From: Escherichia phage vB_EcoM_E9.1
DNA length: 64,000 bases
Strand: one strand, 5' to 3'
Sequence record: PP886230
The position numbers and the translations under genes were made by a program. Positions within the stretch are counted from its first letter, which is position 1. Each line of letters opens with the position of its first letter. The notes beneath the pieces were generated by a model. The model made no database searches, was not told the DNA's origin, and saw only the letters and a program-made list of their open reading frames with translations. Shown piece after piece: positions 38,726 to 52,771 of this stretch.

Positions 38726-38828
38726 TATTTTCTCCTTTATTCATTATATCATATTTACCTCCTAACGAAAACCCTTGACATTCTTTCAGTACTGGTGTAC
38801 TATAGAAGGAATATAAGGAGAACTACAC
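38726..38828. promoter_or_regulatory. divergent promoter region between the two arrays
   Basis: plus strand TTGACA (~38775) - 17 nt - TACTAT then aaggag RBS; minus strand TATAAT plus RBS for first RCC1 cassette. Confidence 0.5.
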
Positions 38829-39056
38829 ATGACAAATACTCTTAAGTACTACCTCAATACTCTAAATGAACTAGAGTACGGGGAATTTCTCGCGGATAGT
38901 TCGTGGCTAATTGAGCTAAAAAATTATAATAGTCCAGGATGCACCCTTATGATGAACAATGCAATTGATACCCTCATTGTGAGTATTTTACACAGCAACA
39001 TCTGCGGGGATAGCAATAAACAATTATCAAAAATCTTAGTACTGCTATCTATATGA
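38829..39056 (+). CDS. small-paralog family member (75 aa)
   Basis: N-term ..KYYLNTL, central NNAIDT, hydrophobic C-term ILVLLSI. Confidence 0.6.
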   Translation: MTNTLKYYLNTLNELEYGEFLADSSWLIELKNYNSPGCTLMMNNAIDTLIVSILHSNICGDSNKQLSKILVLLSI

Positions 39057-39256
39057 ATATCGAACAGTACTACATCGATGCACTACCAACAAAAGGTCTA
39101 CGTGAAAGCCTACTGCATACACAAACTAATTTCAAACACCTCAAACGTAGCCCTAAACTCCTGAACTCGTACAGGAATAATAACATAAGAAATGCTTTAC
39201 AAGGGGTAGAATGTATGCAATACTATTACATCCTTACCCTATTAATCGAGTACTAA
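39053..39256 (+). CDS. small-paralog family member
   Basis: family motifs; start overlaps upstream stop. Confidence 0.6.
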   Translation: MNIEQYYIDALPTKGLRESLLHTQTNFKHLKRSPKLLNSYRNNNIRNALQGVECMQYYYILTLLIEY

Positions 39257-39257
39257 T

Positions 39258-39467
39258 ATGAATACTGAACATAAAGAATTCTACACCAAATACCTTAGCA
39301 ACGAAGAACAATTGTTTCTAAGGAGTGTATCACCTGTAAGTACCAATACTCAATTCGGTAGAGATTGCTTTAATAATTGTATACGTAGTACTCTAGAAGC
39401 AATCGAATGCAATAACAAAAATATTATGTACTCAGGTTTAATAGGACTAATATATTTCTATGAATAA
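39258..39467 (+). CDS. small-paralog family member
   Basis: MNTEHKEFYTKY...FGRDCFNNCI...LIGLIYFYE. Confidence 0.6.
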   Translation: MNTEHKEFYTKYLSNEEQLFLRSVSPVSTNTQFGRDCFNNCIRSTLEAIECNNKNIMYSGLIGLIYFYE

Positions 39468-39654
39468 TCATAAAGATTTCTATTGTAGTAAACTACCCAA
39501 ACAAGAACAGCTATCATTCTCTTTAGCACCACCTATGAGAAAGGATAATCTGTATTATAATTACGATTTCAGGATGGTGACACGTTATGCAATAGAACAT
39601 CAGTTCCCTGAAACTAAGTACCGCTCTATCCTGAACCTCATCTTTAAGTTCTAA
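39460..39654 (+). CDS. small-paralog family member
   Basis: MNNHKDFYCSKL...; overlapping start. Confidence 0.6.
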   Translation: MNNHKDFYCSKLPKQEQLSFSLAPPMRKDNLYYNYDFRMVTRYAIEHQFPETKYRSILNLIFKF

Positions 39655-39706
39655 AAGGTACACCAGGGACCGAGTACTTTAATATAGTAAGGCTAATTAC
39701 ATTATA

Positions 39707-39892
39707 ATGAATCATATAAGCTACTACTACCAACAACTATCCGACAGAGACAAGTACAGTCACAACTCCCATGTGTGGTACTACAAACGCGGCAGTATAA
39801 GAGACAAACAACATTACTTCTGTATTTCTATTAAAGAAGCACTGACAACTAAGTACACGTACCGAGCAGTACTTAAACTTATTGAAATGTAA
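39707..39892 (+). CDS. small-paralog family member
   Basis: C-terminal YRAVLKLIEM. Confidence 0.55.
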   Translation: MNHISYYYQQLSDRDKYSHNSHVWYYKRGSIRDKQHYFCISIKEALTTKYTYRAVLKLIEM

Positions 39893-39902
39893 AGAGAATA
39901 CT

Positions 39903-40085
39903 ATGAACATTGAATTGTACTTAAGTAAATTACAGCCTGGCGATAGATTCATCTACAATAAGTTCGAATTCAACTACAAGAACGGGAGCAACAAATATCG
40001 TCGAGGATACCTATATACAAGCACAAGAGATGCACAAAACGAAAAGTACACATACAGAGAAGTACTTAAACTAATCTCTATTTGA
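39903..40085 (+). CDS. small-paralog family member
   Basis: internal ATG (MNIELYLSKL); C-term YREVLKLISI. Confidence 0.55.
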   Translation: MNIELYLSKLQPGDRFIYNKFEFNYKNGSNKYRRGYLYTSTRDAQNEKYTYREVLKLISI

Positions 40086-40093
40086 GGTAATAT

Positions 40094-40279
40094 ATGAATA
40101 CATTTGAGTACTATACCAATAAACTATCTATGCCTGAAAGATCTCATCTCTATGTGTGGAGAAATGCGTATAAAAGCGGCAATAAACTTATACAAAGAAA
40201 TTCCCTTACAGTGTGTACAAATTTAATTAAAGCAGAGTACCGCACATATATTGAAGTACTCAAACTGATAGCAATATAA
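40094..40279 (+). CDS. small-paralog family member
   Basis: MNTFEYYTNKL...YIEVLKLIAI. Confidence 0.6.
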   Translation: MNTFEYYTNKLSMPERSHLYVWRNAYKSGNKLIQRNSLTVCTNLIKAEYRTYIEVLKLIAI

Positions 40280-40287
40280 GGTACTCT

Positions 40288-40467
40288 ATGCAAGAATTCT
40301 ATATCTATAACCTCCAGCACAAAGATAGATACAACTATAATAAATTCCAAAGGTACTACACAGTCGGGAACAAAAGAGATAAAAAACGTTATCTACTCTC
40401 GTGTACAGTAGAAGCACAAAACGAAAAGTACACGTACAGAGAAGTACTTAAACTAATCTCAATCTAA
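40288..40467 (+). CDS. small-paralog family member (59 aa, not in track)
   Basis: MQEFYIYNLQ...YREVLKLISI; fills gap between neighbours. Confidence 0.5.
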   Translation: MQEFYIYNLQHKDRYNYNKFQRYYTVGNKRDKKRYLLSCTVEAQNEKYTYREVLKLISI

Positions 40468-40474
40468 GGTAGAC

Positions 40475-40663
40475 ATGAACACTTTTGAGTACTACTTCAA
40501 TAAACTAAACCACATAGAACAAAGTATGCACCACACATTTATTCAGAACCATCAATCATCTTCACCTCTAATTAAAAACATATCGATTGAGATTATCACT
40601 ACCCGTGTACAGTCATCTGAACGTTATATGTATATTGATGTACTGAAACTCATCTCTATGTAA
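40475..40663 (+). CDS. small-paralog family member
   Basis: MNTFEYYFNKL...YIDVLKLISM. Confidence 0.6.
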   Translation: MNTFEYYFNKLNHIEQSMHHTFIQNHQSSSPLIKNISIEIITTRVQSSERYMYIDVLKLISM

Positions 40664-40671
40664 GGAATACT

Positions 40672-40851
40672 ATGCAACAATTCTATAGAGAACACATAAG
40701 CATTAAAGACCGTTTCATGTACGACACCTTCGTGAAGTACTACAAACTAGGAACAAAAAGTACTAAAAATATTAATCTCAATAGCTGCATTTATGCTGTA
40801 CTAACACAAGATAATCCCTACAGGGAAATCATTGCCCTGGCATCTATATAA
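40672..40851 (+). CDS. small-paralog family member (59 aa, not in track)
   Basis: MQQFYREHISIKDRF...; fills gap. Confidence 0.45.
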   Translation: MQQFYREHISIKDRFMYDTFVKYYKLGTKSTKNINLNSCIYAVLTQDNPYREIIALASI

Positions 40852-40861
40852 AGGAAACCAA

Positions 40862-41521
40862 ATGAAACTTAATCCACACAGCAAACAATACCTTAAGCAC
40901 TTTAAATACCTCAACAGTATTCAAGCAGAATCTTTTACACCAGCATATACGTATCACCCAAATGTACTAAAGAAACGAAATAAAAAGAAAAAATCCAGAA
41001 ATGTTCTCGTATCTAAGAACCTCAAATCGTACTTGAAGAAAAATAATATAGCTCTTGCTTTTATTAATATCTATAATACTGATTTAAAAGTATTGAGTAC
41101 TAATACCAGCACAAAAGCACTAAAGAATGCATCTATCTATATACACATGGATAATATCCCGTGCACTATAATTCTATCTTTCGGGAATGTATACTTCTTC
41201 GGGAATTGTAATAGCACCCATGATATCAGTACTGCACAATTCCAAATCGGCGATATGTACTGCATGGGTTCAGAAAAAATACACGATAACATGCACTTCT
41301 TCCAAAAGCAACGTACTAACGAAACTGATACAGTACTGCAATTCCTAAAAGAACTACAAAACAAAGAATTAACACCAGAAGAAGAATTCATGTACAGTAC
41401 TGTAATCGATAATCCAGAACTCTATAAAAACGCGTACAATCTAACAAAACATGTACAGGAACTTATCAGTACTGATAAGAAATTTCATCACCTCATTACG
41501 TATATTTCAAACTATGTATAA
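40862..41521 (+). CDS. hypothetical protein (220 aa) embedded in small-paralog operon
   Basis: ATG with aaggaaacc RBS; unrelated to flanking family. Confidence 0.5.
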   Translation: MKLNPHSKQYLKHFKYLNSIQAESFTPAYTYHPNVLKKRNKKKKSRNVLVSKNLKSYLKKNNIALAFINIYNTDLKVLSTNTSTKALKNASIYIHMDNIPCTIILSFGNVYFFGNCNSTHDISTAQFQIGDMYCMGSEKIHDNMHFFQKQRTNETDTVLQFLKELQNKELTPEEEFMYSTVIDNPELYKNAYNLTKHVQELISTDKKFHHLITYISNYV

Positions 41522-41696
41522 AGAATACTACAAAGATAAAATCCCAATGCATCTACAACACCATATACCAAACGTTGCATTGGGTATCAAAGATCACGCA
41601 AAGATAATGTTCCAACAATGTACTAAGTACACGCTCATATACGATGATAATCCATATATGCTGTACTACGTAGTAATGCTAACATTCAGGTACTAA
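41514..41696 (+). CDS. small-paralog family member
   Basis: MYKEYYKDKIPMHLQHHIP...MLTFRY; ATGTATAA overlap. Confidence 0.55.
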   Translation: MYKEYYKDKIPMHLQHHIPNVALGIKDHAKIMFQQCTKYTLIYDDNPYMLYYVVMLTFRY

Positions 41697-41697
41697 T

Positions 41698-41877
41698 ATG
41701 AATACTTATAAAGAATTCTACCTCTCGTACCTTAATTCCGATATAGTAACATCCAATACATTCAGTACTAAAATTATCTATAATGAATTAATGAAAGAAT
41801 GTATTAAAGGTGCTATTAACCCTAAAGATACGTATGACTTGTACTATGCAGTACTAACCCTTGTTTTCACGAAATAA
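41698..41877 (+). CDS. small-paralog family member (59 aa, not in track)
   Basis: MNTYKEFYLSYL...KECIKGAI...LTLVFTK. Confidence 0.5.
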   Translation: MNTYKEFYLSYLNSDIVTSNTFSTKIIYNELMKECIKGAINPKDTYDLYYAVLTLVFTK

Positions 41878-41885
41878 CACATAAT

Positions 41886-42077
41886 ATGAATAACCACATA
41901 GAATACTACATAGAGAAACTCCCAATGTATCTCCAACACCTTGTACCAACAGTACCATTGGGTATAGAAAAAAACTACGAAAAAGACTACTTCATTCAGT
42001 GCACTAAATCCTCGATATATATTGAAGACTATAATCGAGTACTGTATCACATCCTTTTACTAATATATAGGTACTAA
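41886..42077 (+). CDS. small-paralog family member
   Basis: MNNHIEYYIEKLPMYLQHLVP...LLLIYRY. Confidence 0.6.
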   Translation: MNNHIEYYIEKLPMYLQHLVPTVPLGIEKNYEKDYFIQCTKSSIYIEDYNRVLYHILLLIYRY

Positions 42078-42078
42078 T

Positions 42079-42261
42079 ATGCACAAAGAATACTACACAC
42101 AATTTCTCCCCAGCATTTTTGAACACTACGCCAGATACAAAGTCCCTATGGATAACGATTTGGCAGTACTGGGATTCAATAACTGCATAGAACGAAGTAT
42201 AGAAAATAGTAGTAGTTATGACCAGCTATATAACACTATCCTACTTATATTCAGGTACTAA
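42079..42261 (+). CDS. small-paralog family member
   Basis: MHKEYYTQFL...NNCIERSIEN...LLIFRY. Confidence 0.6.
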   Translation: MHKEYYTQFLPSIFEHYARYKVPMDNDLAVLGFNNCIERSIENSSSYDQLYNTILLIFRY

Positions 42262-42262
42262 T

Positions 42263-42451
42263 ATGCATAAAGAATACTACACAAAATATTTCCCAATGTA
42301 CCTCAGTACTAATCTATTAGATAAACCTCGCGGTATCAATGCACAAAACGATAAAGTGTACTTTACTATGTGCACTAAAGCATGTATACTAGATTTTGAC
42401 AGCTATCATCGAGTACTGTATCATACCCTGTACCTAGCTTTCGTATTCTAA
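42263..42451 (+). CDS. small-paralog family member
   Basis: internal ATG (MHKEYYTKYF). Confidence 0.55.
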   Translation: MHKEYYTKYFPMYLSTNLLDKPRGINAQNDKVYFTMCTKACILDFDSYHRVLYHTLYLAFVF

Positions 42452-42460
42452 AAGAACAAT

Positions 42461-42646
42461 ATGCATAAAGAATTCTACTTAAGCCATCTCGATCTAAACT
42501 CCCAAATGCTTATACCACTAATCCCAATAGATATCAAGGATAAGAAAAATACCGAACAATTCATTTACCATACACAGTGTGCGATCACCCCAAATTACAT
42601 TCCATATGAATTGTACTACATTATCGCCCTAATATATAGGTACTAA
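42461..42646 (+). CDS. small-paralog family member
   Basis: MHKEFYLSHL...IALIYRY. Confidence 0.6.
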   Translation: MHKEFYLSHLDLNSQMLIPLIPIDIKDKKNTEQFIYHTQCAITPNYIPYELYYIIALIYRY

Positions 42647-42647
42647 T

Positions 42648-42833
42648 ATGCATAGAGAATACTACACACAATTTGTTAAAGGGAACTACAAATGTGCCGT
42701 ACCCAGAACCCCTTTAAATTCTCATGACCCAAGTACTATATTCTTGTTTAATGACGCAATACGTACAGTACTCAATACTAAAGATGAAGATGTGCAGTAC
42801 GTATTCTTACTATTACTTATATACAGACACTAA
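42648..42833 (+). CDS. small-paralog family member
   Basis: MHREYYTQFV...LLLLIYRH. Confidence 0.6.
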   Translation: MHREYYTQFVKGNYKCAVPRTPLNSHDPSTIFLFNDAIRTVLNTKDEDVQYVFLLLLIYRH

Positions 42834-42838
42834 CTAAT

Positions 42839-43048
42839 ATGAATAAAGAACATAAAGAATTCTACTCCAAATACATAAGCCCCTCAGAACAAATGTTTCT
42901 AAGGACTACTCCACCTTTAAGTACTAATACATTTTTCGGCAGAGTATGCTACAATAATTGTATTCAAATGACTTTAAACGCAAATGAAGATGGTAACAGT
43001 ACTAACCTGTACTCCGGCATCATAGGTATACTATTCCTGTATGAATAA
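42839..43048 (+). CDS. small-paralog family member
   Basis: MNKEHKEFYSKY...FGRVCYNNCIQ; close paralog of 39258. Confidence 0.6.
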   Translation: MNKEHKEFYSKYISPSEQMFLRTTPPLSTNTFFGRVCYNNCIQMTLNANEDGNSTNLYSGIIGILFLYE

Positions 43049-43229
43049 TTACAAAGACTTCTATTTGAATACACTACCTACTGTACTTTCTCTAAGTGCT
43101 CAATGTAAAATCCCCCTGGATAATGCTTACGCCAGATATAGCTATTCCATAACTGTTAATCGATGTATAGAGAATCATTGCAGTACTAACCAGTACTATA
43201 ACATAATCCTACTTATATTCAGGTACTAA
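43041..43229 (+). CDS. small-paralog family member
   Basis: MNNYKDFYLNTL...VNRCIENHC...LLIFRY. Confidence 0.6.
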   Translation: MNNYKDFYLNTLPTVLSLSAQCKIPLDNAYARYSYSITVNRCIENHCSTNQYYNIILLIFRY

Positions 43230-43230
43230 T

Positions 43231-43413
43231 ATGAATAAAGAACATAAAGAATTCTATATACGAAAACTAACATTCGTCCCCGTAAGAATATATAAAGAAT
43301 GCGACCCAAGATTATACCTATGGCACTTCAATGAGTGCATAAAAGATTCTATATACCATAAGAACTATAAAGAACAATTGTGCTCAGTACTAACACTAGT
43401 ACTATCATATTAA
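43231..43413 (+). CDS. small-paralog family member
   Basis: MNKEHKEFYIRKL...FNECIKDSI. Confidence 0.6.
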   Translation: MNKEHKEFYIRKLTFVPVRIYKECDPRLYLWHFNECIKDSIYHKNYKEQLCSVLTLVLSY

Positions 43414-43428
43414 TTAATAGAGAATACT

Positions 43429-43620
43429 ATGTATAAAAACTTCTATATAAGTAAACTAAAAGAAAATGAACAAGTATGGATTAGATCTATAATTCCACTG
43501 GCATTTAATAGATATGCATTTAACAGATGTACCGAGATTGCTATAGACCCTTATAATATTAAAGAGAATGTACAGTATAATCAGTACTACTATATCTTAA
43601 TGCTTATATATAGAAAGTAA
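43429..43620 (+). CDS. small-paralog family member (last)
   Basis: MYKNFYISKL...FNRCTEIAID...LMLIYRK. Confidence 0.6.
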   Translation: MYKNFYISKLKENEQVWIRSIIPLAFNRYAFNRCTEIAIDPYNIKENVQYNQYYYILMLIYRK

Positions 43621-43639
43621 TTAAACACATAGAGACAGG

Positions 43640-43715
43640 GGAAGCTCCTAGTGAACAACCTTTATGTACAGGCGAATTGTTAAAATTCAGCCTGGACAAA
43701 TGCGATCACTAGGAT
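43640..43715 (+). other. long imperfect inverted repeat (possible RNA structure or terminator)
   Basis: ggggaagctcctagtga ... tcactaggattctcccc enclosing an inner caggc/gcctg stem. Confidence 0.4.
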
Positions 43716-44265
43716 TCTCCCCAGGCTAAACCCCGTAATCATAGGTAGTCATAAGTAATCATATATAAACATTTATATGAGCACCGTAGAATCACAGAAT
43801 GATTATATATGATTCAGTACTGATTAGTATAGACAAGATTGCTCAAGAATGCACGGAAATGTGTGTGAATGATTCAGTACTGATATGCCACTAAGTAGGC
43901 AGAGGAAGTCTGCCGTACTTTGTAGTTTCCAAGCTCCTTTTCCATTTTGTAAATTACATCAAATGTAATCAAAAGTAATCACGCAATGATTAGTACTGAA
44001 TTATTACTTTCACCTTAATTACAATTACCCTTTTACCCTTCGGGGTAAAATTCAATTACCCCTTGAGGCTCCAGCAAAAAGTTGGTTAGTACTCCATCCT
44101 AAATCTCGATCCTAAAAATTTTGGAGTACCTATGAAATAAAAGTTGGATCTTCGAAAGTTGAAATTTACGTTGGGACGTTTATGATTTGTGGGATATAAT
44201 GATGTTTGTAGACGGGTAGTTCTCAAGAATATCAGTACTGAATGGTGAAAGAAAGTTATTGACAT

Positions 44266-44296
44266 TATGATTCAGTACTGTATAATGTTTTACATA
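44266..44296 (+). promoter_or_regulatory. sigma70-type promoter with no downstream ORF
   Basis: TTGACA - spacer containing cagtactg - TATAAT, then gttttacat; no ORF over 60 aa for >1 kb. Confidence 0.45.
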
Positions 44297-44599
44297 GAGA
44301 GATGAGTTGCCGCAAACAATTCATTCACTCTACCTCCTGTCGTGAGACAGTACAGAAAGATAGTTCCTCCAATGGGTGGTACATCTTTTTGAACCTCATA
44401 TGAAAATTGTAATAACAGTACTGATATTAACAGAATGGTGTCAGTACTGATTTTAATCTAAAGCATTATGCCACCAGCACAAGCTGGTGGATTCCCTCTA
44501 ACAGTATTCAGTACTACATGATAGTCTTCATCCTCCTAGGGTAACATAGTGAGGGCTATGATGGCAGTACTGAATACTCCCTTTCAAAAGATAGATCTA

Positions 44600-44800
44600 T
44601 GGTATAGTACTGACGGATTTTGGGCGTAGTTACCCTGGATGGATTTTGGACGTAGATATGTCTAGCCCTCCAGAAGTCTGGAAGTAAAGATGGCTATCCA
44701 TCTAGACGGCTAAACGGCTAGATTTCTGGATGGCTAGACGTTTGGACGGCTAAACGGCTAGATGGGTACACGTCTGGAAGTATAGACGGCTAAATCAAAA
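44600..44800. repeat. iteron-like direct repeats
   Basis: gacggctaaacggctagat twice (~44705, ~44745), partial third copy, ctggaagta twice, attttggRcgta repeats. Confidence 0.55.
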
Positions 44801-45410
44801 TTTTATTTTGTTTTTCCAATAGTTCCCCTACCGCGTGGGGATAGTTTCCCCGCAGTATCTGAAGTTAGATTTTTCTGAATCTGGAATCATTATCTTATAA
44901 ACTGGGGGCAATGTCAACGGCCTGGCCGGATATTTTTAAAAATTTTTTCAGTACTGAATTTTGGGCGTAACTATGCACCCGATGGGCTTGAGTCTTTCTC
45001 GACTTGATGGAACTATTATACAGTACTGAAAAAATAAAGCAATACCCTGGAAGCAAAAAAGTTTTAATTAATTTGCTTGCTATCCTGGGCCGGACTATGG
45101 TACTATATTTCAGTACTGAGAAAGTGCGTTTACCTGCTAGGGTGCGGGAGTCTATCCTTTTTTTATATCTTGAATTTTGGACGGATCTTCCCACCCCCTG
45201 GGGTATCCGCTTTCTCGCGTCTATGTAGTAATTATACGCTTTTTCAGGATCAAGTCAATACCTAAAAACAAAATAATTGAAAATAATTTAACGCGTTTAA
45301 ACGGCCCGTAACGCCCTGGATTGTTGGGAGTGGTGCAAATGTATAGCTTAGGTGTATTAATGCGTTAGAATGCGTCTGAGGCCGTTTTATGGGGTGTAGT
45401 AGTGATTTGG

Positions 45411-45503
45411 TTGATTCAGTACTGAATAATAGTACTCCTATATAGAAAGATAGTTCCCCTGGATTGATTCAGTACTGAATAATAGTACTCCTATATAGAA
45501 AGA
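45411..45503. repeat. 40-bp perfect direct repeat x2
   Basis: ttgattcagtactgaataatagtactcctatatagaaaga at ~45411 and ~45464. Confidence 0.7.
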
Positions 45504-45534
45504 AAACTATTTTAAAAGTATTTGTAGAAAGTAC

Positions 45535-45593
45535 TTGCACCGTACTGATAAAAGCGTATAATGTTTTACATCGAGAGCGGGAACACTTCCCGC
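45535..45593 (+). promoter_or_regulatory. PeSL-like cassette: promoter plus 5' stem-loop
   Basis: TTGCAC - 16 nt - TATAAT gttttacatcgaga GCGGGAAcacTTCCCGC. Confidence 0.6.
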
Positions 45594-45617
45594 TACACTT
45601 TAAGAGAGATTAATACG

Positions 45618-45980
45618 ATGGCAACTCAAATCACCAAAATTATTGCTAACCTGGTTAACTTCCGCGACGAGATGAAAGATCTTCCGGCGGCGACGGTTAA
45701 AACTCACATTGACGCATACCGCGAACTGATTAAAATGCTGCCGCTTAAGCGTGAACAATACGCCGCTACCGTGATGCTTGATGCGATGATCCATAAGATG
45801 ATCGCCAGTGATTTGACGATGGTTTATCAGTATATGGGCGAAAATTTCGCGGTGTGTAGTAAGCCAGTACCAGGGATGGCAACAACTGAGGAATTGCACG
45901 GCTTAAACTTAAAACAAGATGCATGGGATAATATGCCTCGTTTCCTGGTATGGGCTGACAGTGGCAAAATTTACAAATAA
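45618..45980 (+). CDS. hypothetical protein (120 aa), GC-richer codon usage
   Basis: ATG after RBS taagagag; track ORF start is an ATG inside the -10 hexamer. Confidence 0.6.
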   Translation: MATQITKIIANLVNFRDEMKDLPAATVKTHIDAYRELIKMLPLKREQYAATVMLDAMIHKMIASDLTMVYQYMGENFAVCSKPVPGMATTEELHGLNLKQDAWDNMPRFLVWADSGKIYK

Positions 45981-45994
45981 GTTTAATAAAGTAC

Positions 45995-46053
45995 TTGCAA
46001 ACTATGTTTAATGGCGTATAATGTTTTACATCAGGTGGGGAATAGTTCCCCAC
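45995..46053 (+). promoter_or_regulatory. PeSL-like cassette
   Basis: TTGCAA .. TATAAT .. GTGGGGAAtagTTCCCCAC. Confidence 0.6.
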
Positions 46054-46075
46054 TATATAAGAGGATTAAAAAAAA

Positions 46076-46315
46076 ATGGCTAAATCAAAAATGTTCTTAG
46101 GTCACAAAAACAAAACTCATTGGAATGTAAGCCTGTGGATTAATAACGATGAGGGATTGTATCGGTTGGCCCTGGACTTTATTGCCGCCAATACTAATCG
46201 CAATGATGCGGCCCGTCATATGATGTTATTTTTAGAACAGACTGGACAAGATAAAACACCGGACGGATTCAAATATAGCACTACTGCGATCCGTGCGGCG
46301 ATGGTTGGAATGTAA
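46076..46315 (+). CDS. hypothetical protein (79 aa)
   Basis: promoter and 5' hairpin upstream; RBS gagga. Confidence 0.55.
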   Translation: MAKSKMFLGHKNKTHWNVSLWINNDEGLYRLALDFIAANTNRNDAARHMMLFLEQTGQDKTPDGFKYSTTAIRAAMVGM

Positions 46316-46403
46316 TAGAATAGAATTTATTTAAAGTACTATTGCACGGGGATAGTACTTTATAATAGTGTTTTATTCATACACCAACGATAAGGGCAAC
46401 AGC

Positions 46404-46670
46404 ATGAATATTAAGTATTTTGCGACGCGTGAACAAGCTCGGATCGCCGCTCGCCAGGACGGGGCAACGTTTAAAGATATGGGCGTACAATCGGAACGTG
46501 GTAAACGTTGGGCCATTGTAAAGCGTAGTACCGCCAGATCATTACAGTACTGGTTAGCGGCCTTAAAAAGTCCCGATAGTGTATCGCGTCGAGTGGTAGA
46601 AATAAAGCTCGACCGAAAGGGCAACCGCGTGACCGTGTACCGTACTAAAAAGATTGCAGTACTTGAATAA
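46404..46670 (+). CDS. hypothetical protein; paralog of 58621 ORF
   Basis: shared KYFATREQARIAAR..TFKDMG..DRKGNRVTVY motifs. Confidence 0.6.
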   Translation: MNIKYFATREQARIAARQDGATFKDMGVQSERGKRWAIVKRSTARSLQYWLAALKSPDSVSRRVVEIKLDRKGNRVTVYRTKKIAVLE

Positions 46671-46677
46671 AAAGTAC

Positions 46678-46736
46678 TTGCAAACTATGTTTAAAGGCGT
46701 ATAATGTTTTACATCGAGAGCGGGAACTCTTCCCGC
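46678..46736 (+). promoter_or_regulatory. PeSL-like cassette
   Basis: TTGCAA .. TATAAT .. GCGGGAActcTTCCCGC. Confidence 0.6.
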
Positions 46737-46757
46737 CTATAACCTGGAGTAATAAAA

Positions 46758-46988
46758 ATGACTAATATGTATATGACTGAAGTTAAAACCGTAAAAGATA
46801 CTACCACGAATAAAACTACTTACTTACAGCGGATCTGTGGTGTATGGCAACGTATCAGCAAATCAAAGTACTTTAAATTAACATCATATGCAAACCGTTC
46901 TGATTCATTCAGTACTGAAATAAAAGGTAATAAAGTACACCAATACGGCACTTATTATTATTACAGCCTGGACGCGATTGCAGTATAA
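46758..46988 (+). CDS. hypothetical protein (76 aa)
   Basis: promoter-hairpin cassette upstream; RBS ggag. Confidence 0.55.
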   Translation: MTNMYMTEVKTVKDTTTNKTTYLQRICGVWQRISKSKYFKLTSYANRSDSFSTEIKGNKVHQYGTYYYYSLDAIAV

Positions 46989-47237
46989 GCAGTTTACAAA
47001 TCTTTACAATTGCCGGTATTGACTTATTTTGTCAGTACTGGCATAATGTATTCATTGGCAGATAAGCCGTAGCCCATAGGGTGCGGGAGTGTATCTATAG
47101 AAAAATTAGTTTAGTATAGTTACAATTGTGCACCCGGTGGGTTAGCTGTTGTCATGGGGTATATTATGCCAGTACTTGATAATGCTGTCAATACTTTTTT
47201 TTACTATCCAGTACAGAAAACTATTTTTAAAAAGTAC

Positions 47238-47384
47238 TTGCAAACTATGTTTAAAGGCGTATAATGTTTTACATCAGGACGGGGGAACGAAATAAGTAAC
47301 TTCCCGTTAAGTAGCCCAGGAGTAAGGCACACGAAAAACTCCCCTGATAAAATAGTTTGACAAATGTTTTTAAAAGCGTATAAT
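47238..47384 (+). promoter_or_regulatory. dual-promoter module with conserved inter-promoter element (copy 1)
   Basis: TTGCAA..TATAAT (47238-47265), ~73-nt element caggacggggg...cccctg, then TTGACA..TATAAT (47357-47384). Confidence 0.55.
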
Positions 47385-47416
47385 ACTTACATCAACTACT
47401 GAATGAGGGTTACAAA

Positions 47417-48028
47417 ATGAAAACTATCACTACTACTACTTTCGTTATGGATTTTTCTGAATTGAACGCAGAACAAAAAACGTCAGCTATCGAACTGGTT
47501 CGGGAACGTGAAAAAAACTCAAACGACAATTATTTTTCTGAAAGTGAAATTGAATACTATAAAGAAACAGTACTACCGGAATATGGCATTAATGACGCTG
47601 AAATACAATTCAGTGGCTTTTGGTCCCAGGGTGACGGTGCATCAATCAGTACTGACCACGTTGACGCAGTGAAGTTTTTACGCAAGGTAAGAGCATTAAC
47701 TAAGTATCGCTCAATCCGTCACTTGCTGAATGAAGATGATTTGGCGATGAGTGTAAAGCGTTCGCACTCCCACTACTCGCATGAGAATACTGTAAGCGGG
47801 TACATTGAATCGGCTTACACTGATTTAACCGCAAAACAAGAAACGTTAGTTAATGAGCTTGAGGAACTACTCACTGATACTATTCGTGAATTGTCCCGCA
47901 AGTTGTACCGTGATTTAGAGAATGCATATGAGGATCAATTCACTACTGAAAACATTACGGCACTGATTGAGGGTAACGAGTATCAATTCAATGTTATTGA
48001 TGGCGTAGTGGAATCAATCGAATATTAA
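47417..48028 (+). CDS. hypothetical protein (203 aa)
   Basis: downstream of dual-promoter module; RBS gaggg. Confidence 0.6.
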   Translation: MKTITTTTFVMDFSELNAEQKTSAIELVREREKNSNDNYFSESEIEYYKETVLPEYGINDAEIQFSGFWSQGDGASISTDHVDAVKFLRKVRALTKYRSIRHLLNEDDLAMSVKRSHSHYSHENTVSGYIESAYTDLTAKQETLVNELEELLTDTIRELSRKLYRDLENAYEDQFTTENITALIEGNEYQFNVIDGVVESIEY

Positions 48029-48040
48029 TTTAAAAAGTAC

Positions 48041-48099
48041 TTGCAAACTAAGTTTAAAAGCGTATAATACTTTATATCGAGAGCGGGAATAGTTCCCGC
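48041..48099 (+). promoter_or_regulatory. PeSL-like cassette
   Basis: TTGCAA .. TATAAT .. GCGGGAAtagTTCCCGC. Confidence 0.6.
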
Positions 48100-48120
48100 T
48101 ACTAATGAGGAATACTACAA

Positions 48121-48285
48121 ATGAATACTTTTACCTTCGCTCAATTGAACGCCCTGGATGTATTGTCTGATGCTTTGCGGGATGCAACTGAAAGCGGTTT
48201 ATTTGACAATGTTGACATTCACCCTGATGTAATTAATAATTTTTGTGATGCTATCGCAGAAGTACTGGAAGATCTAAAAAAATAA
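48121..48285 (+). CDS. hypothetical small protein (54 aa, not in track)
   Basis: ATG after promoter-hairpin cassette and RBS gagg. Confidence 0.5.
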   Translation: MNTFTFAQLNALDVLSDALRDATESGLFDNVDIHPDVINNFCDAIAEVLEDLKK

Positions 48286-48295
48286 TAGAAAGTAC

Positions 48296-48355
48296 TTGCA
48301 ATTAGTTTTTAGTACTGTATAATGTTTTACATAGAGGGGAGAAATGGTTCTCCCT
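48296..48355 (+). promoter_or_regulatory. PeSL-like cassette
   Basis: TTGCAA .. gtactgTATAAT .. GGGGAGAAatggTTCTCCC. Confidence 0.6.
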
Positions 48356-48373
48356 GGTAATGAGGAAAATACA

Positions 48374-48595
48374 ATGGCTAATATCACTACTCTTTCCCAA
48401 CTGGAAGCACTGGTTAAATCTATGCGGGAACATGCCGACAATATCGGCGTAAAAGATCCAGCCGTTTGCTTCTGCGACGAATTGAATGATGATACCCTGG
48501 TAATAGCAGAAGTCCAGGACGTTTCTAACTATTCCTCGCGTTACACTGGCGGCGTAGCAAATAAAGGTGACTTCTGTTTATACCTTACCAAATAA
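48374..48595 (+). CDS. hypothetical protein
   Basis: internal ATG (MANITTLSQ) after RBS; cassette upstream. Confidence 0.55.
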   Translation: MANITTLSQLEALVKSMREHADNIGVKDPAVCFCDELNDDTLVIAEVQDVSNYSSRYTGGVANKGDFCLYLTK

Positions 48596-48763
48596 CAACG
48601 CGGGGAGATAATAACTCCCCGTTACTTTTTCAGTACTGAATCATTTAATAGACGGATCTCGGCACCCGGTGGGTTAGTGACTGTTTCGTCTTGATGTAGT
48701 AATTATGCCAGTACTGGATGCACTTGTCAACAACTATTTTTCAAATACTTTTTATTAAAATAC

Positions 48764-48817
48764 TTGCTAATAGTTTTTAAACGCGTATAATGTTTTGCAT
48801 AGGGGGAGCGGTTCCCC
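48764..48817 (+). promoter_or_regulatory. PeSL-like cassette
   Basis: TTGCTA .. TATAAT .. GGGGAgcgGTTCCCC. Confidence 0.55.
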
Positions 48818-48838
48818 TGGTAACTAAGGAATAATAAA

Positions 48839-49075
48839 ATGCTTGAACAAATCAAATCAACGTCTGCGAATGTAACGGGAACGGTTGTACACTTTACTAG
48901 TGATGAATCGCGGGGCGTTCCCTATTGTGCTGTACATGTAAACACTGATGGCAACTACTGGTTTACGGTTTACGGATCATATTCATTTGGACGACCAGGG
49001 CATCAAAAAATTCTGGATAAAGTACAGCCAACGGGTAAAAATATCACGGCTGAAATGTTTTATAAAAAATCATAA
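48839..49075 (+). CDS. hypothetical protein (78 aa)
   Basis: cassette upstream; RBS aagga. Confidence 0.55.
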   Translation: MLEQIKSTSANVTGTVVHFTSDESRGVPYCAVHVNTDGNYWFTVYGSYSFGRPGHQKILDKVQPTGKNITAEMFYKKS

Positions 49076-49080
49076 AGTAC

Positions 49081-49140
49081 TTGATAATAGTTTTTAGTAC
49101 TGTATAATATTTTACATCGCAAGGGGGTAATGGTTCCCCC
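49081..49140 (+). promoter_or_regulatory. PeSL-like cassette
   Basis: TTGATA .. gtactgTATAAT .. GGGGGTAAtggTTCCCCC. Confidence 0.55.
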
Positions 49141-49160
49141 TGGTAACTAAGGATAATCAA

Positions 49161-49460
49161 ATGAAAGTTGCATTCATCGCCCTGGCTTTATCTGTTTCCT
49201 CTTTTGCTGTTAATGCGTCGTTAGATGTAAGTAGTGAAAAATTCATTCAGTGCACTGTAGCAATGACAGATGAAAGTACTGGCGAGATTGTATTAAAGGA
49301 TCTGGAGATTCAGCCGGAAGCATTTAAAAACGGCCCGTTCCATGAAGAAGACGAAAACGGTAGCACAACAATTTATTATGATGCCAGTACTAAACGCGGG
49401 TCGGTCACTGTTATGGATACTGAGAAAGTAACTCATACTGGCGTTATTAATTGCCGTTGA
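49161..49460 (+). CDS. secreted protein (signal peptide)
   Basis: N-terminus MKVAFIALALSVSSFAVNA. Confidence 0.6.
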   Translation: MKVAFIALALSVSSFAVNASLDVSSEKFIQCTVAMTDESTGEIVLKDLEIQPEAFKNGPFHEEDENGSTTIYYDASTKRGSVTVMDTEKVTHTGVINCR

Positions 49461-49481
49461 TAGATACTACGGGGTAACATC

Positions 49482-49712
49482 ATGACTAAGCGAATTGTTT
49501 TACTTAACGAAAGCAGTACTACACAACTACTTAACGCCGTGCATTATGATATTGAAACGAGCGTTAATCTTATCAGTACTGTAGTACTGTTGGACACTGG
49601 AAAGGTCGCCAATGATAAAGCGATTGCAGGTATACTAACGGATCTTGAGCCTGGTAGCAGTGCACCAATAACGTTAAATGGTAAAGTGTTTAATATTTTA
49701 CTCACTGATTAA
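49482..49712 (+). CDS. hypothetical protein (76 aa)
   Basis: ORF followed by intrinsic terminator. Confidence 0.55.
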   Translation: MTKRIVLLNESSTTQLLNAVHYDIETSVNLISTVVLLDTGKVANDKAIAGILTDLEPGSSAPITLNGKVFNILLTD

Positions 49713-49718
49713 GTACAT

Positions 49719-49742
49719 AGCCCACCTGGTGGGCTTTTTTGT
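49719..49742 (+). terminator. intrinsic terminator
   Basis: agcccacctggtgggct + T-run. Confidence 0.7.
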
Positions 49743-49943
49743 TTTTGTAGTATCGTAGTACTGAGATACTTTGAAAATAGTTTTAAAAAAGTAGTTGACA
49801 TTACCGCAGAAAAGCGTAGAATGTATTACATCAAGACGGGGAGCACTAAGTAGACCGCCAGTAAGTCGAACGAAAAACTGGACACGTCGAGAAAACTTTG
49901 ATACACTAATAAACGTAAACTAAACTTTAATTGAGGATTTATA

Positions 49944-50426
49944 ATGGCTAATGTAAAATCATTCATCAAAGCACTGGTAGCAAATGAAACTAACGTCGCG
50001 GCTGAGATCCTGGCTGAACTGGATAACGATACCATGAAAGCGGTACGCAATAATTTTAACATCGCGTACAGTACTGCGAAAGAACTACAAGCAAATAAAG
50101 CGGCAGAAATTGAAGCGGCAAAGGCGGCCCGTGAAGCAGAACTACAAGCAACAATCGAAAGTATCCAGGCGGCGGTGTCTGGATTGGATCTGGAAGTGGT
50201 TGTGGAAATGGCACATAAAGCCCTGGCGGTTAAGTATGGTGAAGATAAGCCAGAATCTAAACCCAAAAAATGGATTCAGGAACGCGTAGCGGTAGTACTG
50301 GACAACGGGGAAGAATATCTGATTCCGGTGCGTGGTAACTGTATTGCGGTAGTACTGGACGCTATCAAAGAAAGCGGTATGACTCGCGAGGAATGGATCG
50401 AAGCTCATCGCAAAGTTGAAGCATAA
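49944..50426 (+). CDS. hypothetical protein (160 aa), Ala/Glu-rich helical
   Basis: long 5' leader after promoter at ~49795; RBS gagga; terminator downstream. Confidence 0.6.
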   Translation: MANVKSFIKALVANETNVAAEILAELDNDTMKAVRNNFNIAYSTAKELQANKAAEIEAAKAAREAELQATIESIQAAVSGLDLEVVVEMAHKALAVKYGEDKPESKPKKWIQERVAVVLDNGEEYLIPVRGNCIAVVLDAIKESGMTREEWIEAHRKVEA

Positions 50427-50447
50427 CAATTAAAGTACTGAATCACT

Positions 50448-50473
50448 AGCCCACTGTATAAGTGGGCTTTTTT
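50448..50473 (+). terminator. intrinsic terminator
   Basis: agcccactgtataagtgggct + tttttt. Confidence 0.7.
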
Positions 50474-50637
50474 GTGTTTATCGTTTACCAGGCCACCAGC
50501 ACCGCCTAGAAACGATTCTAACGCATTAAACGGATTATCTGATGCATTGCCCTAGCTGGTGGCGTTAAGGCTGTAAGAACGCGATTGAGAGCGTTTAAAG
50601 TATTTTGCAAAAAGTAATAAAAAGTACTTGAACGATT

Positions 50638-50687
50638 AAGAGATTAGCGTATAATGTTTTACATCGAGAGGGGGAAACGGTTCTCCT
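50638..50687 (+). promoter_or_regulatory. PeSL-like cassette
   Basis: TTGAAC .. TATAAT .. GAGGGGGAAacggTTCTCC. Confidence 0.55.
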
Positions 50688-50710
50688 TCCAAATCAAAGG
50701 AATCAAAACA

Positions 50711-50938: not shown

Positions 50939-50946
50939 AAAAGTAC

Positions 50947-51006
50947 TTGCAAAGTAAATCGAATAAAGTATAATACATTACATCAAGGGGAGAAATGGTT
51001 CTCCCC
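50947..51006 (+). promoter_or_regulatory. PeSL-like cassette
   Basis: TTGCAA .. TATAAT .. GGGGAGAAatggTTCTCCCC. Confidence 0.6.
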
Positions 51007-51023
51007 ACTACAAGGAAACTAAA

Positions 51024-52768: not shown

Positions 52769-52771
52769 TAC

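Follow-up and report, generated by a model that had tools for sequence, protein, structure and literature searches.

The region 43621-45617 of the Escherichia phage vB_EcoM_E9.1 (record PP886230) is, as judged from alignment with related genomes, the junction between the unique right arm of the genome and a direct terminal repeat (DTR) of ~21 kb. We consider it probable that this junction carries a control region that acts in cis at the genome end and offers docking sites to host proteins, a counterpart of the injection-stop (iss) region of phage T5. The leader of the repeat would be this control region and would consist largely of such docking sites, for RNA polymerase, for RecBCD and, it appears, for the methionine repressor MetJ; the whole arrangement would represent the jumbo-phage version of the untranslated iss region. 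The analysis covered a window of 64,000 nucleotides, to which all positions refer. The phage is an Asteriusvirus (PBECO4/121Q-like jumbo coliphage) and shares 97% identity with genomes of that group. Earlier publications have described the 21 kb terminal repeat of such jumbo phages; for the contents of the DTR edge, we found no description in the literature searched.

Genome end and direct terminal repeat

By homology with relatives, the physical terminus is located between 43893 and 43894, making 43894 the first base of the DTR. Position 1 of fEgEco12, vB_Ec-M-J, BAU.Micro_ELP-22, CRJP21 and BF17 maps to 43894, as does the last base (in reverse complement) of G17 and WPEC3. In total, seven independently deposited records begin or end at this base. 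The termini of fEgEco12 were determined by PhageTerm and restriction digests (PMC13070987), the DTR of G17 was established by read coverage (PMC6563267) and the termini of XbC2 were obtained by PhageTerm (PMC11273794). A DTR is also annotated in the records of vB_Ec-M-J and Muenster. Both nucleotides 1-3000 of fEgEco12 and its sequence beginning at 353,741 can be aligned to the window starting at 43894, indicating that the repeat is present at both ends. Its right boundary is at ~64.9 kb, beyond the window. Note that the first-pass annotation of this DNA, made from the sequence alone, did not recognise the ~21 kb terminal repeat.

The left-end cut site (ATTCAGTACTGATATGCCACTA / AGTAGGCAGAGGAAGTCTGCC; 43872-43914, + strand) was defined from the record ends of relatives. 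The record of Klebsiella phage Muenster (DTR by PhageTerm) ends with 22 nt that are identical to 43872-43893 (22/22). Muenster, Serratia BF and XbC2 have in common GCC(A/G)CTA immediately before the cut and (G/A)AAGTC at +12 to +17, and the cut-site flank is conserved in four genera. No recognition motif common to the left and right DTR boundaries was found. Transferred from the relatives, the left terminus is the fixed, non-permuted end of a DTR genome of the T5/T7 type. We propose that the terminase cuts concatemers between GATATGCCACTA and AGTAGGCAG, with the conserved flanks serving as the recognition site. A packaging signal was one of three functions initially suggested for this region. 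It comes closest, because the left end, and with it the predicted packaging cut of the concatemer, is at 43893/43894 inside the region, with flanks kept across genera.

The final 273 bp before the cut site (43621-43893) form the tail of the right arm, analysed by eight-genome alignment, per-column conservation and repeat search. This tail contains an invariant block at about 43678-43775, an imperfect inverted repeat of 22 nt (43633-43654 and 43706-43727) and two copies of the palindrome ATTCAGTACTGA, at 43814 and 43874.

Coding status of the region

The DTR begins with an untranslated leader of 1.72 kb (43894-45617, + strand), in which ORF and conservation analysis revealed no conserved ORF. 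ORF-free leaders are also present in Muenster (1.3 kb), BF (1.8 kb) and XbC2 (1.7 kb). The longest ATG-started ORF in the region is 59 aa (44086-44265, minus strand), and longer ones need GTG or TTG starts (99 aa at 44895-45194, minus strand; 74 aa at 45004-45228 and 62 aa at 45077-45265, both plus strand). The earlier statement that no ORF of 60 aa or more exists here is therefore incorrect to the letter but holds in substance. Each ORF of at least 30 aa is disrupted by a frameshift or stop in at least one of seven close relatives, ruling out conserved coding potential for all nine ORFs. A 33-aa ORF within the candidate transcript of promoter P1 (see below) is disrupted in all seven. The first real gene starts at ATG 45618; ATG 45561 falls within a -10 box. 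Apparent ~1 kb 'insertions' in G17 and PBECO4, seen in the first BLAST table, turned out to be second alignment pieces on downstream repeated promoter units; the ORF-free stretch of these two phages has the same size as in the window phage.

ARAGORN detected no tRNA or tmRNA in the window, in agreement with the earlier failure to find convincing tRNA signatures. A comparison to Rfam, as proposed in the first-pass annotation, returned no family, either for the whole window at gathering thresholds or for region 43621-45617 at E<=1.

Conserved and repeated elements of the leader

Conservation was measured per column in an alignment of eight Asteriusvirus genomes, across which the leader is strongly conserved. 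The most conserved non-coding block is at 44040-44199, with 85-100% invariant columns over 44040-44159 and 75% over 44160-44199. Its core, TCCTAAAAATTTTGGAGTACC, also occurs in Serratia BF. We regard this block as a candidate binding site for terminase or an end-binding protein. Further downstream, a repeat search identified two copies of GGATTTTGG(G/A)CGTAG (44612-44658, + strand) directly before the 8-bp array described below. This element precedes the array in Serratia BF as well, and additional copies are found at 44953-44973 and about 45170-45185.

A cross-genus element at 45015-45237, containing TTCAGTACTGAGAAAGTGC...GCTAGGGTGCGGG and CCCACCCCCTGGGGTATCCGCTTTCTCGCGTCT, shares 72% identity with Muenster 1156-1383, and part of it matches BF 1065-1102. 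Local alignment revealed a 35-nt element (45355-45389, + strand; 36 alignment columns) that is also present in the injection-stop region of T5. It is identical to T5 9341-9376 in 31 of 36 columns, with a score of 41 compared to a maximum of 32 in 100 shuffles, and is nearly invariant within Asteriusvirus. Repeat search and alignment further identified two identical 40-nt copies at 45411-45503 (+ strand), with starts 53 bp apart and each containing TTCAGTACTGAATAATAGTACT. The copy number of this repeat differs among relatives (several extra in JNE01, one in G17).

The first-pass annotation had drawn attention to at least 14 copies of AGTACTG in this region. Fourteen are indeed present on the + strand, and 27 matches on both strands. 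However, AGTACT is over-represented ~13-fold throughout the window (291 copies versus about 22 expected), ruling it out as a region-specific signal. It occurs 3.7 times per kb of coding DNA and 8.4 times per kb of intergenic DNA, compared to 9.5 times per kb for the region; with respect to AGTACT, the region is therefore ordinary intergenic DNA. The only form concentrated here is the extended palindrome TCAGTACTGA, with 8 of the window's 16 copies. The other repeats pointed out earlier were recovered: the palindrome CCACCAGC-acaa-GCTGGTGG at 44471-44490, the hairpin TTTACCC-ttcg-GGGTAAA at about 44033-44050, and direct repeats, accompanied by inverted and tandem repeats. Missed at that stage were that the palindrome is a pair of Chi sites, that the direct repeats include a met-box-like 8-bp array and that AGTACT is a genome-wide motif.

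An array of met-box-like units

The sequence at 44656-44791 is a head-to-tail array of 8-bp units with the consensus AGACGGCT, resembling the met boxes bound by the methionine repressor MetJ. Thirteen uninterrupted in-phase boxes occupy 44688-44791, and two extra boxes are in register at 44656 and 44672; we state the array size as 13-17 units. Scored with the published MetJ matrix, the array reached 94.3 bits, compared to 12.9 bits for the next best run in the window and a maximum of 22.8 bits in 200 shuffles. As a MetJ operator we counted at least two adjacent in-phase 8-bp boxes, each with at least one quarter of the consensus score and together with at least the consensus score (12.58 bits); the array passes with 13 boxes and 94.3 bits. 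Its base frequencies correlate with the MetJ matrix in a single phase (r=0.97) and not in the other seven (r<=0). The arrays of seven phages likewise showed r=0.90-0.97 in one phase only. Among relatives, the array varies from 12 to 15 copies by whole-unit changes. Tandem Repeats Finder reported periods of 8, 16, 32 and 40 within it.

The array shares with the operators of E. coli MetJ the tandem 8-bp units in strict phase (consensus AGACGTCT), the score per box (mean 7.3 bits, like native boxes) and the box variants, all of which occur in native operators (e.g. metE ggacggct). In contrast to the 2-4 boxes and 15-31 bits of native E. coli operators, the phage array comprises 13-17 boxes and is placed 0.8 kb from a DNA end. 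Moreover, unlike a native operator it does not overlap a promoter: a consensus scan found no promoter-like site across 44656-44791, the nearest being about 90 nt (leftward, 44917 to 44889) and about 370 nt (P1) away. About half of the boxes, in all phage families, have G instead of the consensus T at position 6, which could mean a different binder.

Similar arrays were found in 95 phage records, of which 94 are from hosts in MetJ-bearing orders (MetJ distribution from PMC3228920). The remaining case is XbC2, whose reported host, Xanthomonas, is outside these orders (PMC11273794). In the podoviruses, the array is close to the very end (nt 38-109 in PGT2; within 150 nt of the end in KPV811). Jumbo phages carry it about 0.7-0.9 kb from the end, and T5-like phages within the repeat. 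Among the Pfam matches listed (25 of 34 matched families) for the 140 predicted proteins of the window, which covers 64 of about 350 kb, no MetJ, Arc or RHH family was present. Boxes for Fur, DnaA or LexA were not detected in region 43621-45617. A full-text literature search for met boxes and phage returned only the MetJ regulon paper, and we found no literature linking met boxes or Fur boxes to phage termini in what is an incomplete full-text collection.

We infer from the matrix scores that the 13-17 units may bind host MetJ (with SAM) cooperatively. The array could then act as a sponge, derepressing methionine/SAM synthesis for a phage with DNA methyltransferases, or it could form a protein-DNA anchor at the genome end. 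The link to SAM is proposed because the Asteriusvirus phAPEC6 encodes two DNA methyltransferases (PMC7247149). The sponge would resemble decoy arrays in its repeated operator sites and differs from them in that titration in this phage is deduced from sequence. As exploited in the Fur titration assay, repeated operators on a multicopy replicon can sequester a repressor. To our knowledge, there is no natural phage example of a transcription-factor decoy array.

Chi sites near the genome ends

Chi is the octamer GCTGGTGG, which is recognised by RecBCD. The palindrome CCACCAGC acaa GCTGGTGG (44471-44490) is an inverted pair of exact Chi octamers, and its distance from the left end is 577 bp. RecBCD entering at that end would meet the first copy (CCACCAGC on the top strand, 44471) in the orientation it recognises, with the octamer on the strand whose 3' end is at the entry point. 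The pair is conserved in seven of the eight Asteriusvirus genomes, and its loop is either ACAA or TTGT; in the annotation of G17 it is listed as a terminator. Across the window, the octamer occurs at 16 sites, compared to 0.58 expected. The repeat holds 11 sites, 7 of them intergenic. Nine of these 11 are oriented for RecBCD arriving from the right end, seven being located within about 10 kb of it, and the Chi orientation thus fits both genome ends. Note that the positive GC skew of the repeat somewhat favours G-rich octamers such as Chi.

In our model, the inverted pair would stop RecBCD entering at the exposed end and switch it to RecA loading, and this switch would also favour recombination between the two repeat copies. 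The exact octamer, its strong over-representation and its correct orientation towards both DNA ends are as in the known Chi/RecBCD system. In contrast, the phage sites form an inverted pair, a hairpin in non-coding DNA, and attenuation of RecBCD here is a prediction.

Promoters and a candidate non-coding RNA

A consensus promoter noted earlier was confirmed in full: TTGACA-16 nt-TATAAT at 44259-44286 (+ strand; P1) matches the sigma-70 consensus at 12 of 12 positions, and its spacer is within the accepted range of 16-18 nt. By consensus scan and family comparison, P1 is the leftmost of ~27 near-identical predicted sigma-70 early promoter units in the DTR, and the only one lacking a downstream 5' hairpin, Shine-Dalgarno sequence and ATG. 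Two conserved leftward sigma-70-like promoters are present on the minus strand: TTGACA-17-GATAAT at 44889-44917, which faces the array, and TTGACT-16-TATAAT at 45231-45258. The promoter and 5'UTR unit of the first DTR gene (45530-45617, + strand; AGTACTTGCA...TATAATGTTTTACAT, followed by a hairpin and the Shine-Dalgarno sequence AAGAGAG) belongs to the same promoter family and is 77-87% identical to units in phi92/rV5-like phages. P1 and the promoter of g01 would be the first of the ~27 early promoters, which would drive roughly 50-60 small genes of the repeat, presumably for host takeover. The earlier description of the region as dense in promoters lacks statistical support, because promoter-like and terminator-like consensus counts were not above those in shuffles. 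The individual promoters are supported by conservation and, in the predicted early units, by family membership.

P1 itself may direct synthesis of a structured non-coding RNA. Folding and alignment define a candidate transcript at 44293-44500 (+ strand) with conserved predicted hairpins: CUGUC-GUGA-GACAG, a 14-bp stem between two copies of CAGTACTG, and the Chi hairpin. The folding z-scores of predicted transcripts were -3.2 and -5.6 relative to shuffles. Compensatory changes were found in 6 of 55 predicted pairs of the P1 RNA, weak support from covariation. A non-coding RNA locus was another of the functions suggested earlier, and a transcript of this kind from P1 is plausible.

Discussion

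The closest known parallel to the leader is the iss region of T5, described as a site that acts in cis within 1662 bp of untranslated sequence with abundant repeats and palindromes, to which a host protein has been proposed to bind (10.1101/866236). As in T5, a gene-free stretch of 1-2 kb is placed in a long exact terminal repeat, the rest of which encodes small early genes with sigma-70 promoters, and this large untranslated region is rich in repeats and palindromes. Both also contain clusters of (predicted) host-protein binding sites and share the 36-column element. The T5-like phage PR1 carries a met-box-like array in the ORF-free end of its terminal repeat, beside DnaA boxes, a LexA-like box and Chi sites. 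Pontus and AhSzq-1 have arrays similar to that of the window phage, PR1 being the T5-like phage in which the array was placed within the repeat. In T5 itself there is no met-box run (best run 13.4 bits); the T5 iss and the Muenster leader have clusters of Fur boxes at the equivalent position. Iss is defined by paired DnaA boxes in inverted-repeat modules, which the region lacks: no TTATCCACA-type box with at least 8 of 9 matches was found in 43400-46000. Whereas iss is at the inner edge, the leader occupies the outer (left) edge of the left copy, and the repeat measures 21 kb versus 10 kb in T5. Two-step DNA transfer is known for T5 but is not known to occur in these jumbo phages. The position of the leader would fit an iss-like halt only if the right end of the genome entered first.

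The left end and concatemer junction of T7 provide a second parallel. T7 has a terminal repeat of 160 bp, with short CCTAAAG repeat arrays at its ends. In both systems the terminal repeat is exact, the cut sites are fixed, and strong host-type early promoters come after a gene-free left end with short repeat arrays. At the position of the T7 CCTAAAG repeats, the podoviruses PGT2 and KPV811 have the 8-bp array. The T7 repeat is far shorter, however, and its short-repeat unit is different; we know of no Chi sites or met boxes at the T7 left end.

The 8-bp array might instead be bound by a phage-encoded protein, either a ribbon-helix-helix (RHH) protein or the small subunit of terminase, and have a role in packaging or in duplication of the repeat; its likeness to met boxes would then be incidental, or array and binder would have been transferred together horizontally. 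We consider this somewhat unlikely. The location of arrays near genome ends in three families of DTR phages would be accounted for, as would the G/T split at position 6, common to all of them and unusual for native met boxes, the report of XbC2 on a host without MetJ and the parallel with the T7 repeats. However, a single binder would have to be assumed for three unrelated phage families, the matches listed for the window proteins (25 of 34 families; 140 proteins, 64 of about 350 kb) include no MetJ, Arc or RHH candidate, 94 of the 95 array-bearing records come from MetJ-bearing host orders, and every box variant is found in native operators. In addition, Muenster and T5 have Fur-box clusters in place of the array, a replacement that speaks for host factors in general. 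As for a decayed or mis-framed gene spanning the region, this idea is close to refuted. It can draw on the three ORFs with GTG or TTG starts and on hypothetical proteins annotated here in some deposited records, such as g614 of fEgEco12, which is annotated in just one of the two repeat copies. The ORFs are broken by 1-bp indels or stops in at least one relative although the DNA is 82% identical, and no gene is placed here in the carefully made annotations of G17, 121Q, PBECO4 and A4.

A replication origin, another of the functions suggested initially, would take the repeats as iterons and the AT-rich tracts as an unwinding element, with the convergent or divergent promoters activating initiation. 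This weakly supported proposal can draw on the GC skew, the cumulative minimum of which falls here and which changes sign at 43.6-43.9 kb although + strand genes are found on both sides. But the change is exactly at the repeat boundary and may therefore simply reflect the different make-up of the repeat. The array is flanked by AT-rich runs, a single IHF consensus is present at 44793 and conserved promoters occur on both strands; the AT-rich tracts are non-specific. Against these features, the region has no DnaA boxes and no adjacent initiator gene, with no initiator family among the Pfam matches listed for the proteins of the window, and the array matches the operator of a host repressor rather than an unknown iteron. 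In T5, the closest analogue, origins have been mapped to the centre of the genome, away from the iss region (10.1101/866236). We judge an origin to be quite improbable. An unlikely reading, though less so than an origin, is that small non-coding RNAs from P1 and the two leftward promoters are the main product and the DNA repeats secondary. It would explain a perfect consensus promoter with no ORF behind it, predicted transcripts that fold far better than shuffles and the invariant GUGA-loop hairpin. Yet the same folding scores arise from palindromic DNA, Rfam offered no family at E<=1, compensatory change affects just 6 of 55 pairs, and the terminus, the Chi pair and the array would be left unexplained. 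A terminal control region with host-protein docking sites thus remains our preferred interpretation, with the role of MetJ deduced from sequence.

A wider proposal is put forward tentatively, as a possibility that falls short of being probable. DTR phages of at least three unrelated families (Rak2-like jumbo myoviruses, T5-like siphoviruses and some T7-like podoviruses) may bear interchangeable cassettes of host-repressor operators beside their ends, MetJ met boxes or Fur boxes alongside DnaA/LexA boxes and Chi sites. Such a cassette might act as a sponge, or as a brake or anchor that stages DNA entry. As a sponge, it would derepress the methionine/SAM or iron regulons. As a brake or anchor, it would mean that the long-sought host factor of T5 injection stop is a set of abundant repressors and that two-step DNA transfer extends to jumbo phages of 350 kb.

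The conserved cut-site sequence and the Chi pair should be useful to orient, annotate and engineer jumbo phages. If the array binds MetJ, it would be a natural viral super-operator for a repressor, three to four times longer than any host operator, and would let the phage redirect the methionine/SAM metabolism of its host, or secure its own genome end, by simple means that involve DNA alone. Met-box arrays and Fur-box clusters in or beside the T5-type injection-stop region (PR1, T5) would supply concrete host candidates to test in a mechanism that has been a puzzle since the 1960s.

Absence of genes from the region at 43621-45617

Across the region and its flanks, identity to the PBECO4/121Q-like jumbo coliphages (~350 kb, genus Asteriusvirus) is 88-97%. 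Genes in the window point rightward at 1-24.6 kb, leftward at 24.6-38.7 kb, where they form an array of RCC1-like paralogues, and rightward again from 38.8 kb to the window end, where small genes of ~60 codons are densely packed. The leftward block (24614-38725, minus strand) comprises 10-11 tandem paralogues, each ~250-430 aa long and carrying RCC1-like repeat domains (11 proteins match Pfam WD40_RLD/RCC1). Further Pfam matches among the window proteins are to a ParE-like toxin domain, a DksA/TraR zinc finger, a GNAT acetyltransferase, a pyrimidine-dimer glycosylase and an AAA/STAND-type NTPase; the majority of the small genes in the terminal repeat lack a Pfam match.

The first-pass annotation had reported no ORF of 60 aa or more, which is correct for ATG starts (longest 59 aa) but not for GTG and TTG starts (99, 74 and 62 aa). 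We aligned the region with that of seven relatives (PBECO4, G17, fEgEco12, 121Q, TH47, JNE01 and A4; mean column identity 82%). No conserved gene spans it: each ORF of at least 30 aa is frameshifted or stopped in at least one of the seven, and the 99-aa ORF is disrupted in three, while in a fourth its stop codon is missing. The region is likewise empty in the curated annotations of G17, 121Q, PBECO4 and A4. An AAGAGAG ribosome-binding site precedes the first real gene, which begins at ATG 45618. An automatic ORF call had placed a gene start at ATG 45561; this was rejected, as it lies inside a TATAATG -10 box. A tRNA search of 43621-45617 found none, in agreement with the earlier inspection, and no Rfam family matched there at gathering thresholds or at E≤1. 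The initial observation is real: the consensus promoter, the two named palindromes, 14 copies of AGTACTG and numerous repeats were all confirmed.

Position and conservation of the left genome terminus

Judged from sequence comparison, the region is the left genome terminus together with the untranslated leader of the terminal repeat, a leader resembling the injection stop signal (iss) of phage T5. Phage fEgEco12 has direct terminal repeats of 20,993 bp, determined by PhageTerm and confirmed by restriction digests, and repeats of ~20 kb are noted for others in the genus (PMC13070987); for G17, the repeat was deduced separately, on the basis of read coverage (PMC6563267). The first bases of the fEgEco12, vB_Ec-M-J, BAU.Micro_ELP-22, CRJP21 and BF17 records, all of which include the repeat, align to window position 43894 (AGTAGGCAGAGGAAGTCTGCC...), as do the last bases of the G17 and WPEC3 records, deposited in the opposite orientation. 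Thus, by homology to mapped relatives, all seven record ends place the cut at 43893|43894, with 43621-43893 as the unique right-arm tail and the repeat from 43894 onward. Its right boundary lies at ~64.9 kb, beyond the window.

Conservation of the cut site extends well past the genus. In Klebsiella phage Muenster (Alcyoneusvirus), PhageTerm placed the repeat at 1-20,030; the Muenster record contains a single copy and ends in ATTCAGTACTGATATGCCACTA, identical to 43872-43893 at 22 of 22 positions. As in the window, GCC(A/G)CTA precedes the cut in Serratia phage BF and phage XbC2, and (G/A)AAGTC occupies positions 12-17 beyond it; PhageTerm gave the XbC2 termini, and the XbC2 record starts with its one repeat copy (PMC11273794). 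These conserved flanks may serve in terminase recognition. No motif similar to the left cut site was found at the right repeat boundary of fEgEco12.

A conserved untranslated leader

The cut is separated from the first gene by 1.72 kb (43894-45617). In most 40-nt stretches of this leader, eight genomes agree at 60-100% of the columns, even where flanking sequence has diverged. Equivalent ORF-free leaders of 1.3-1.8 kb occur in Muenster, BF and XbC2, and blocks at 44109-44130 and 45185-45222 align with BF and at 45015-45237 with Muenster.

AGTACT, which had been taken as a feature of the region, is a property of the whole phage, since its density here (9.5/kb) equals the phage intergenic average (8.1-8.4/kb). 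The window holds 291 copies versus 21.6 expected (13.5-fold), with the runner-up palindromic hexamer enriched only 2.2-fold. Within genes AGTACT is enriched ~10-fold (3.7/kb) in all three reading frames and is therefore a DNA-level signal. Only the longer palindrome TCAGTACTGA is concentrated in the region (8 of 16 window copies). About 47 AGTACT copies lie in promoter contexts (AAAGTACTTGCA, AGTACTGTATAAT), and the motif reaches the same density in leaders from other Rak2-like genera (Muenster, BF and XbC2 compared). Six palindromic hexamers, with 2-7 copies of each expected, are absent from the whole window (CCGCGG, CCCGGG, CCATGG, AGGCCT, AGCGCT and ACCGGT), consistent with restriction-site avoidance.

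The consensus promoter, P1 (44259-44286), is a perfect sigma-70 promoter and the leftmost of a family of ~27 near-identical early promoter units at 44281-63109 (AAAGTACTTGCA-N16-TATAATGTTTTACAT), found on the plus strand only and in the repeat only. In every unit except P1, TATAATGTTTTACAT is followed by a short GC hairpin (GGGGAA..TTCCCC), a Shine-Dalgarno ribosome-binding site and an ATG; P1 is the sole member with no gene behind it. The unit is 77-87% identical to sequences of phi92/rV5-like phages. Two conserved promoter-like sites point leftward on the minus strand (44917 to 44889 and 45258 to 45231).

P1 may yield a non-coding RNA. The transcript predicted from P1 has favourable folding scores (z = -3.2 and -5.6) and invariant hairpins, with few compensatory changes, so that an RNA product is plausible but unproven. 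A purely RNA-based function of the region is unlikely, as is a decayed gene. A replication origin, also proposed initially, draws its one line of support from GC skew, which changes sign at 43.6-43.9 kb with the coding strand unchanged. No DnaA boxes are present in the region, and the change falls at the repeat boundary. On the coding strand, GC skew is approximately -0.2 at 38800-43900 and +0.1 at 43900-64000, with gene orientation constant; between 39 and 43 kb, AT skew takes strongly positive values.

Chi sites

The window contains 16 copies of GCTGGTGG, the E. coli Chi octamer, versus 0.58 ± 0.75 expected from dinucleotide shuffles (highest shuffle, 3). All lie within 15015-62632; 11 are in the repeat, seven of them intergenic. 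The palindrome noted initially, the hairpin CCACCAGC-acaa-GCTGGTGG (44471-44490), has Chi on both strands. RecBCD recognizes Chi on the strand ending 3' at its entry point, and the first correctly oriented site from 43894 lies 577 bp in. Nine of the 11 repeat sites are oriented for the right genome end, seven of these at 54.6-62.6 kb. The Chi pair is kept in seven of eight Asteriusvirus genomes, its loop alternating between ACAA and TTGT, and would protect the end and promote recombination between repeat copies. Another oppositely oriented pair occurs at 50493/50555, and three Chi sites lie in frame within one RCC1-like paralogue of 24614-38725.

A met-box-like array in the leader

The direct repeats at 44656-44791 consist of head-to-tail 8-bp units (AGATGGCT ATCCATCT AGACGGCT AAACGGCT AGATTTCT GGATGGCT AGACGTTT GGACGGCT AAACGGCT AGATGGGT ACACGTCT GGAAGTAT AGACGGCT). 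Scored with the published MetJ met-box matrix and thresholds (PMC3228920), 44688-44791 forms an uninterrupted run of 13 boxes with a summed score of 94.3 bits. The next best run in the 64 kb reaches 12.9 bits, and the best of 200 shuffles 22.8 bits over four boxes. Native operators of E. coli K-12 have 2-4 boxes and 15-31 bits (Table S1, PMC3228920) and include the same box variants, e.g. metE ggacggct (PMC3228920). The base-frequency matrix of the array correlates with the MetJ matrix in one phase (r = 0.97) and in none of the other seven (r ≤0).

Relatives have 12-15 boxes, differing by whole units. Units with TTCAGTACTGAATAATAGTACT (45411-45503), spaced 53 bp apart, also vary in number among close relatives (alignment columns 2085-2235). 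Variable copy number of both unit types suggests that slippage or unequal exchange is frequent within the leader.

BLAST with the array detected similar arrays in other Rak2-like jumbo phages (BF, Erwinia Eneladusviruses, XbC2 and CBB) at 0.65-0.9 kb from left ends, in T5-like phages infecting Vibrio, Aeromonas or Providencia, and in the podoviruses PGT2 and KPV811 within 40-150 nt of a genome end. GAP32 also has one, in a record that starts elsewhere than the terminus. Of 95 array-bearing records, 94 are from the MetJ-carrying orders Enterobacterales, Vibrionales and Aeromonadales; the exception, XbC2, was reported on Xanthomonas, yet has a G+C content of 37.5% versus ~65% for that host.

MetJ with SAM would coat the array. 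Weaknesses of this reading are that the array overlaps no promoter and that, in each phage family, roughly half of the boxes have G at position 6. A phage-encoded binding protein is a serious alternative, if a rather improbable one; MetJ, Arc and RHH families are absent from the 25 listed of 34 Pfam families matched by the window's 140 predicted proteins. If bound by MetJ, the array could act as a sponge, relieving repression of methionine/SAM synthesis when genome copies increase in number, which is plausible for a phage encoding adenine and cytosine DNA methyltransferases (PMC7247149), or as a protein-DNA anchor at the genome end; both roles are workable.

Comparison with the T5 injection stop signal

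The leader is best described as an iss-like region. In T5, the iss is annotated at 9140-10149, the gene-free end of the 10.2-kb left terminal repeat, and a review author proposed that a host protein bound there stops DNA entry, mentioning neither Fur nor MetJ (10.1101/866236). An element common to the T5 iss and our region is identical in 31 of 36 columns (score 41 versus a maximum of 32 in 100 shuffles). PR1, a T5-like phage of Providencia, has an array of 9 met boxes (88.5 bits) in the equivalent gene-free repeat end, accompanied there by DnaA boxes, a LexA-like box and Chi sites of either orientation. No run of met boxes occurs in T5; its iss area has a cluster of Fur-box-like repeats, and the first 11 kb contain 16 matches of at least 14/19 versus 1.0 expected. 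At T5 9140-10219, a near-perfect LexA box (TACTGTATAAATATACAGTA) and the Fur-box-like cluster lie beside the known DnaA boxes. Muenster likewise lacks met boxes and has a cluster of near-consensus Fur boxes in the untranslated repeat leader, where Asteriusvirus has met boxes (787-906, 1073-1097, 1306-1324 and 2422-2446 from the left end; up to 16/19 positions; 17 matches versus 0.38 expected). One Muenster Fur box overlaps the start of the first gene. In contrast to the iss, the region has no DnaA boxes, the defining iss feature, and we therefore consider the leader an analogue rather than a member.

The leader of the right-hand repeat copy is situated at the inner repeat edge, 19-21 kb away from the right genome end, the same relative position as the T5 iss. 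We speculate that, were the right end to enter first, the repeat might be a first-step-transfer segment. The repeat as such was already known; the conserved cut site, the paired Chi sites and, most notably, the arrays of met boxes and Fur boxes are apparently undescribed so far and directly testable.
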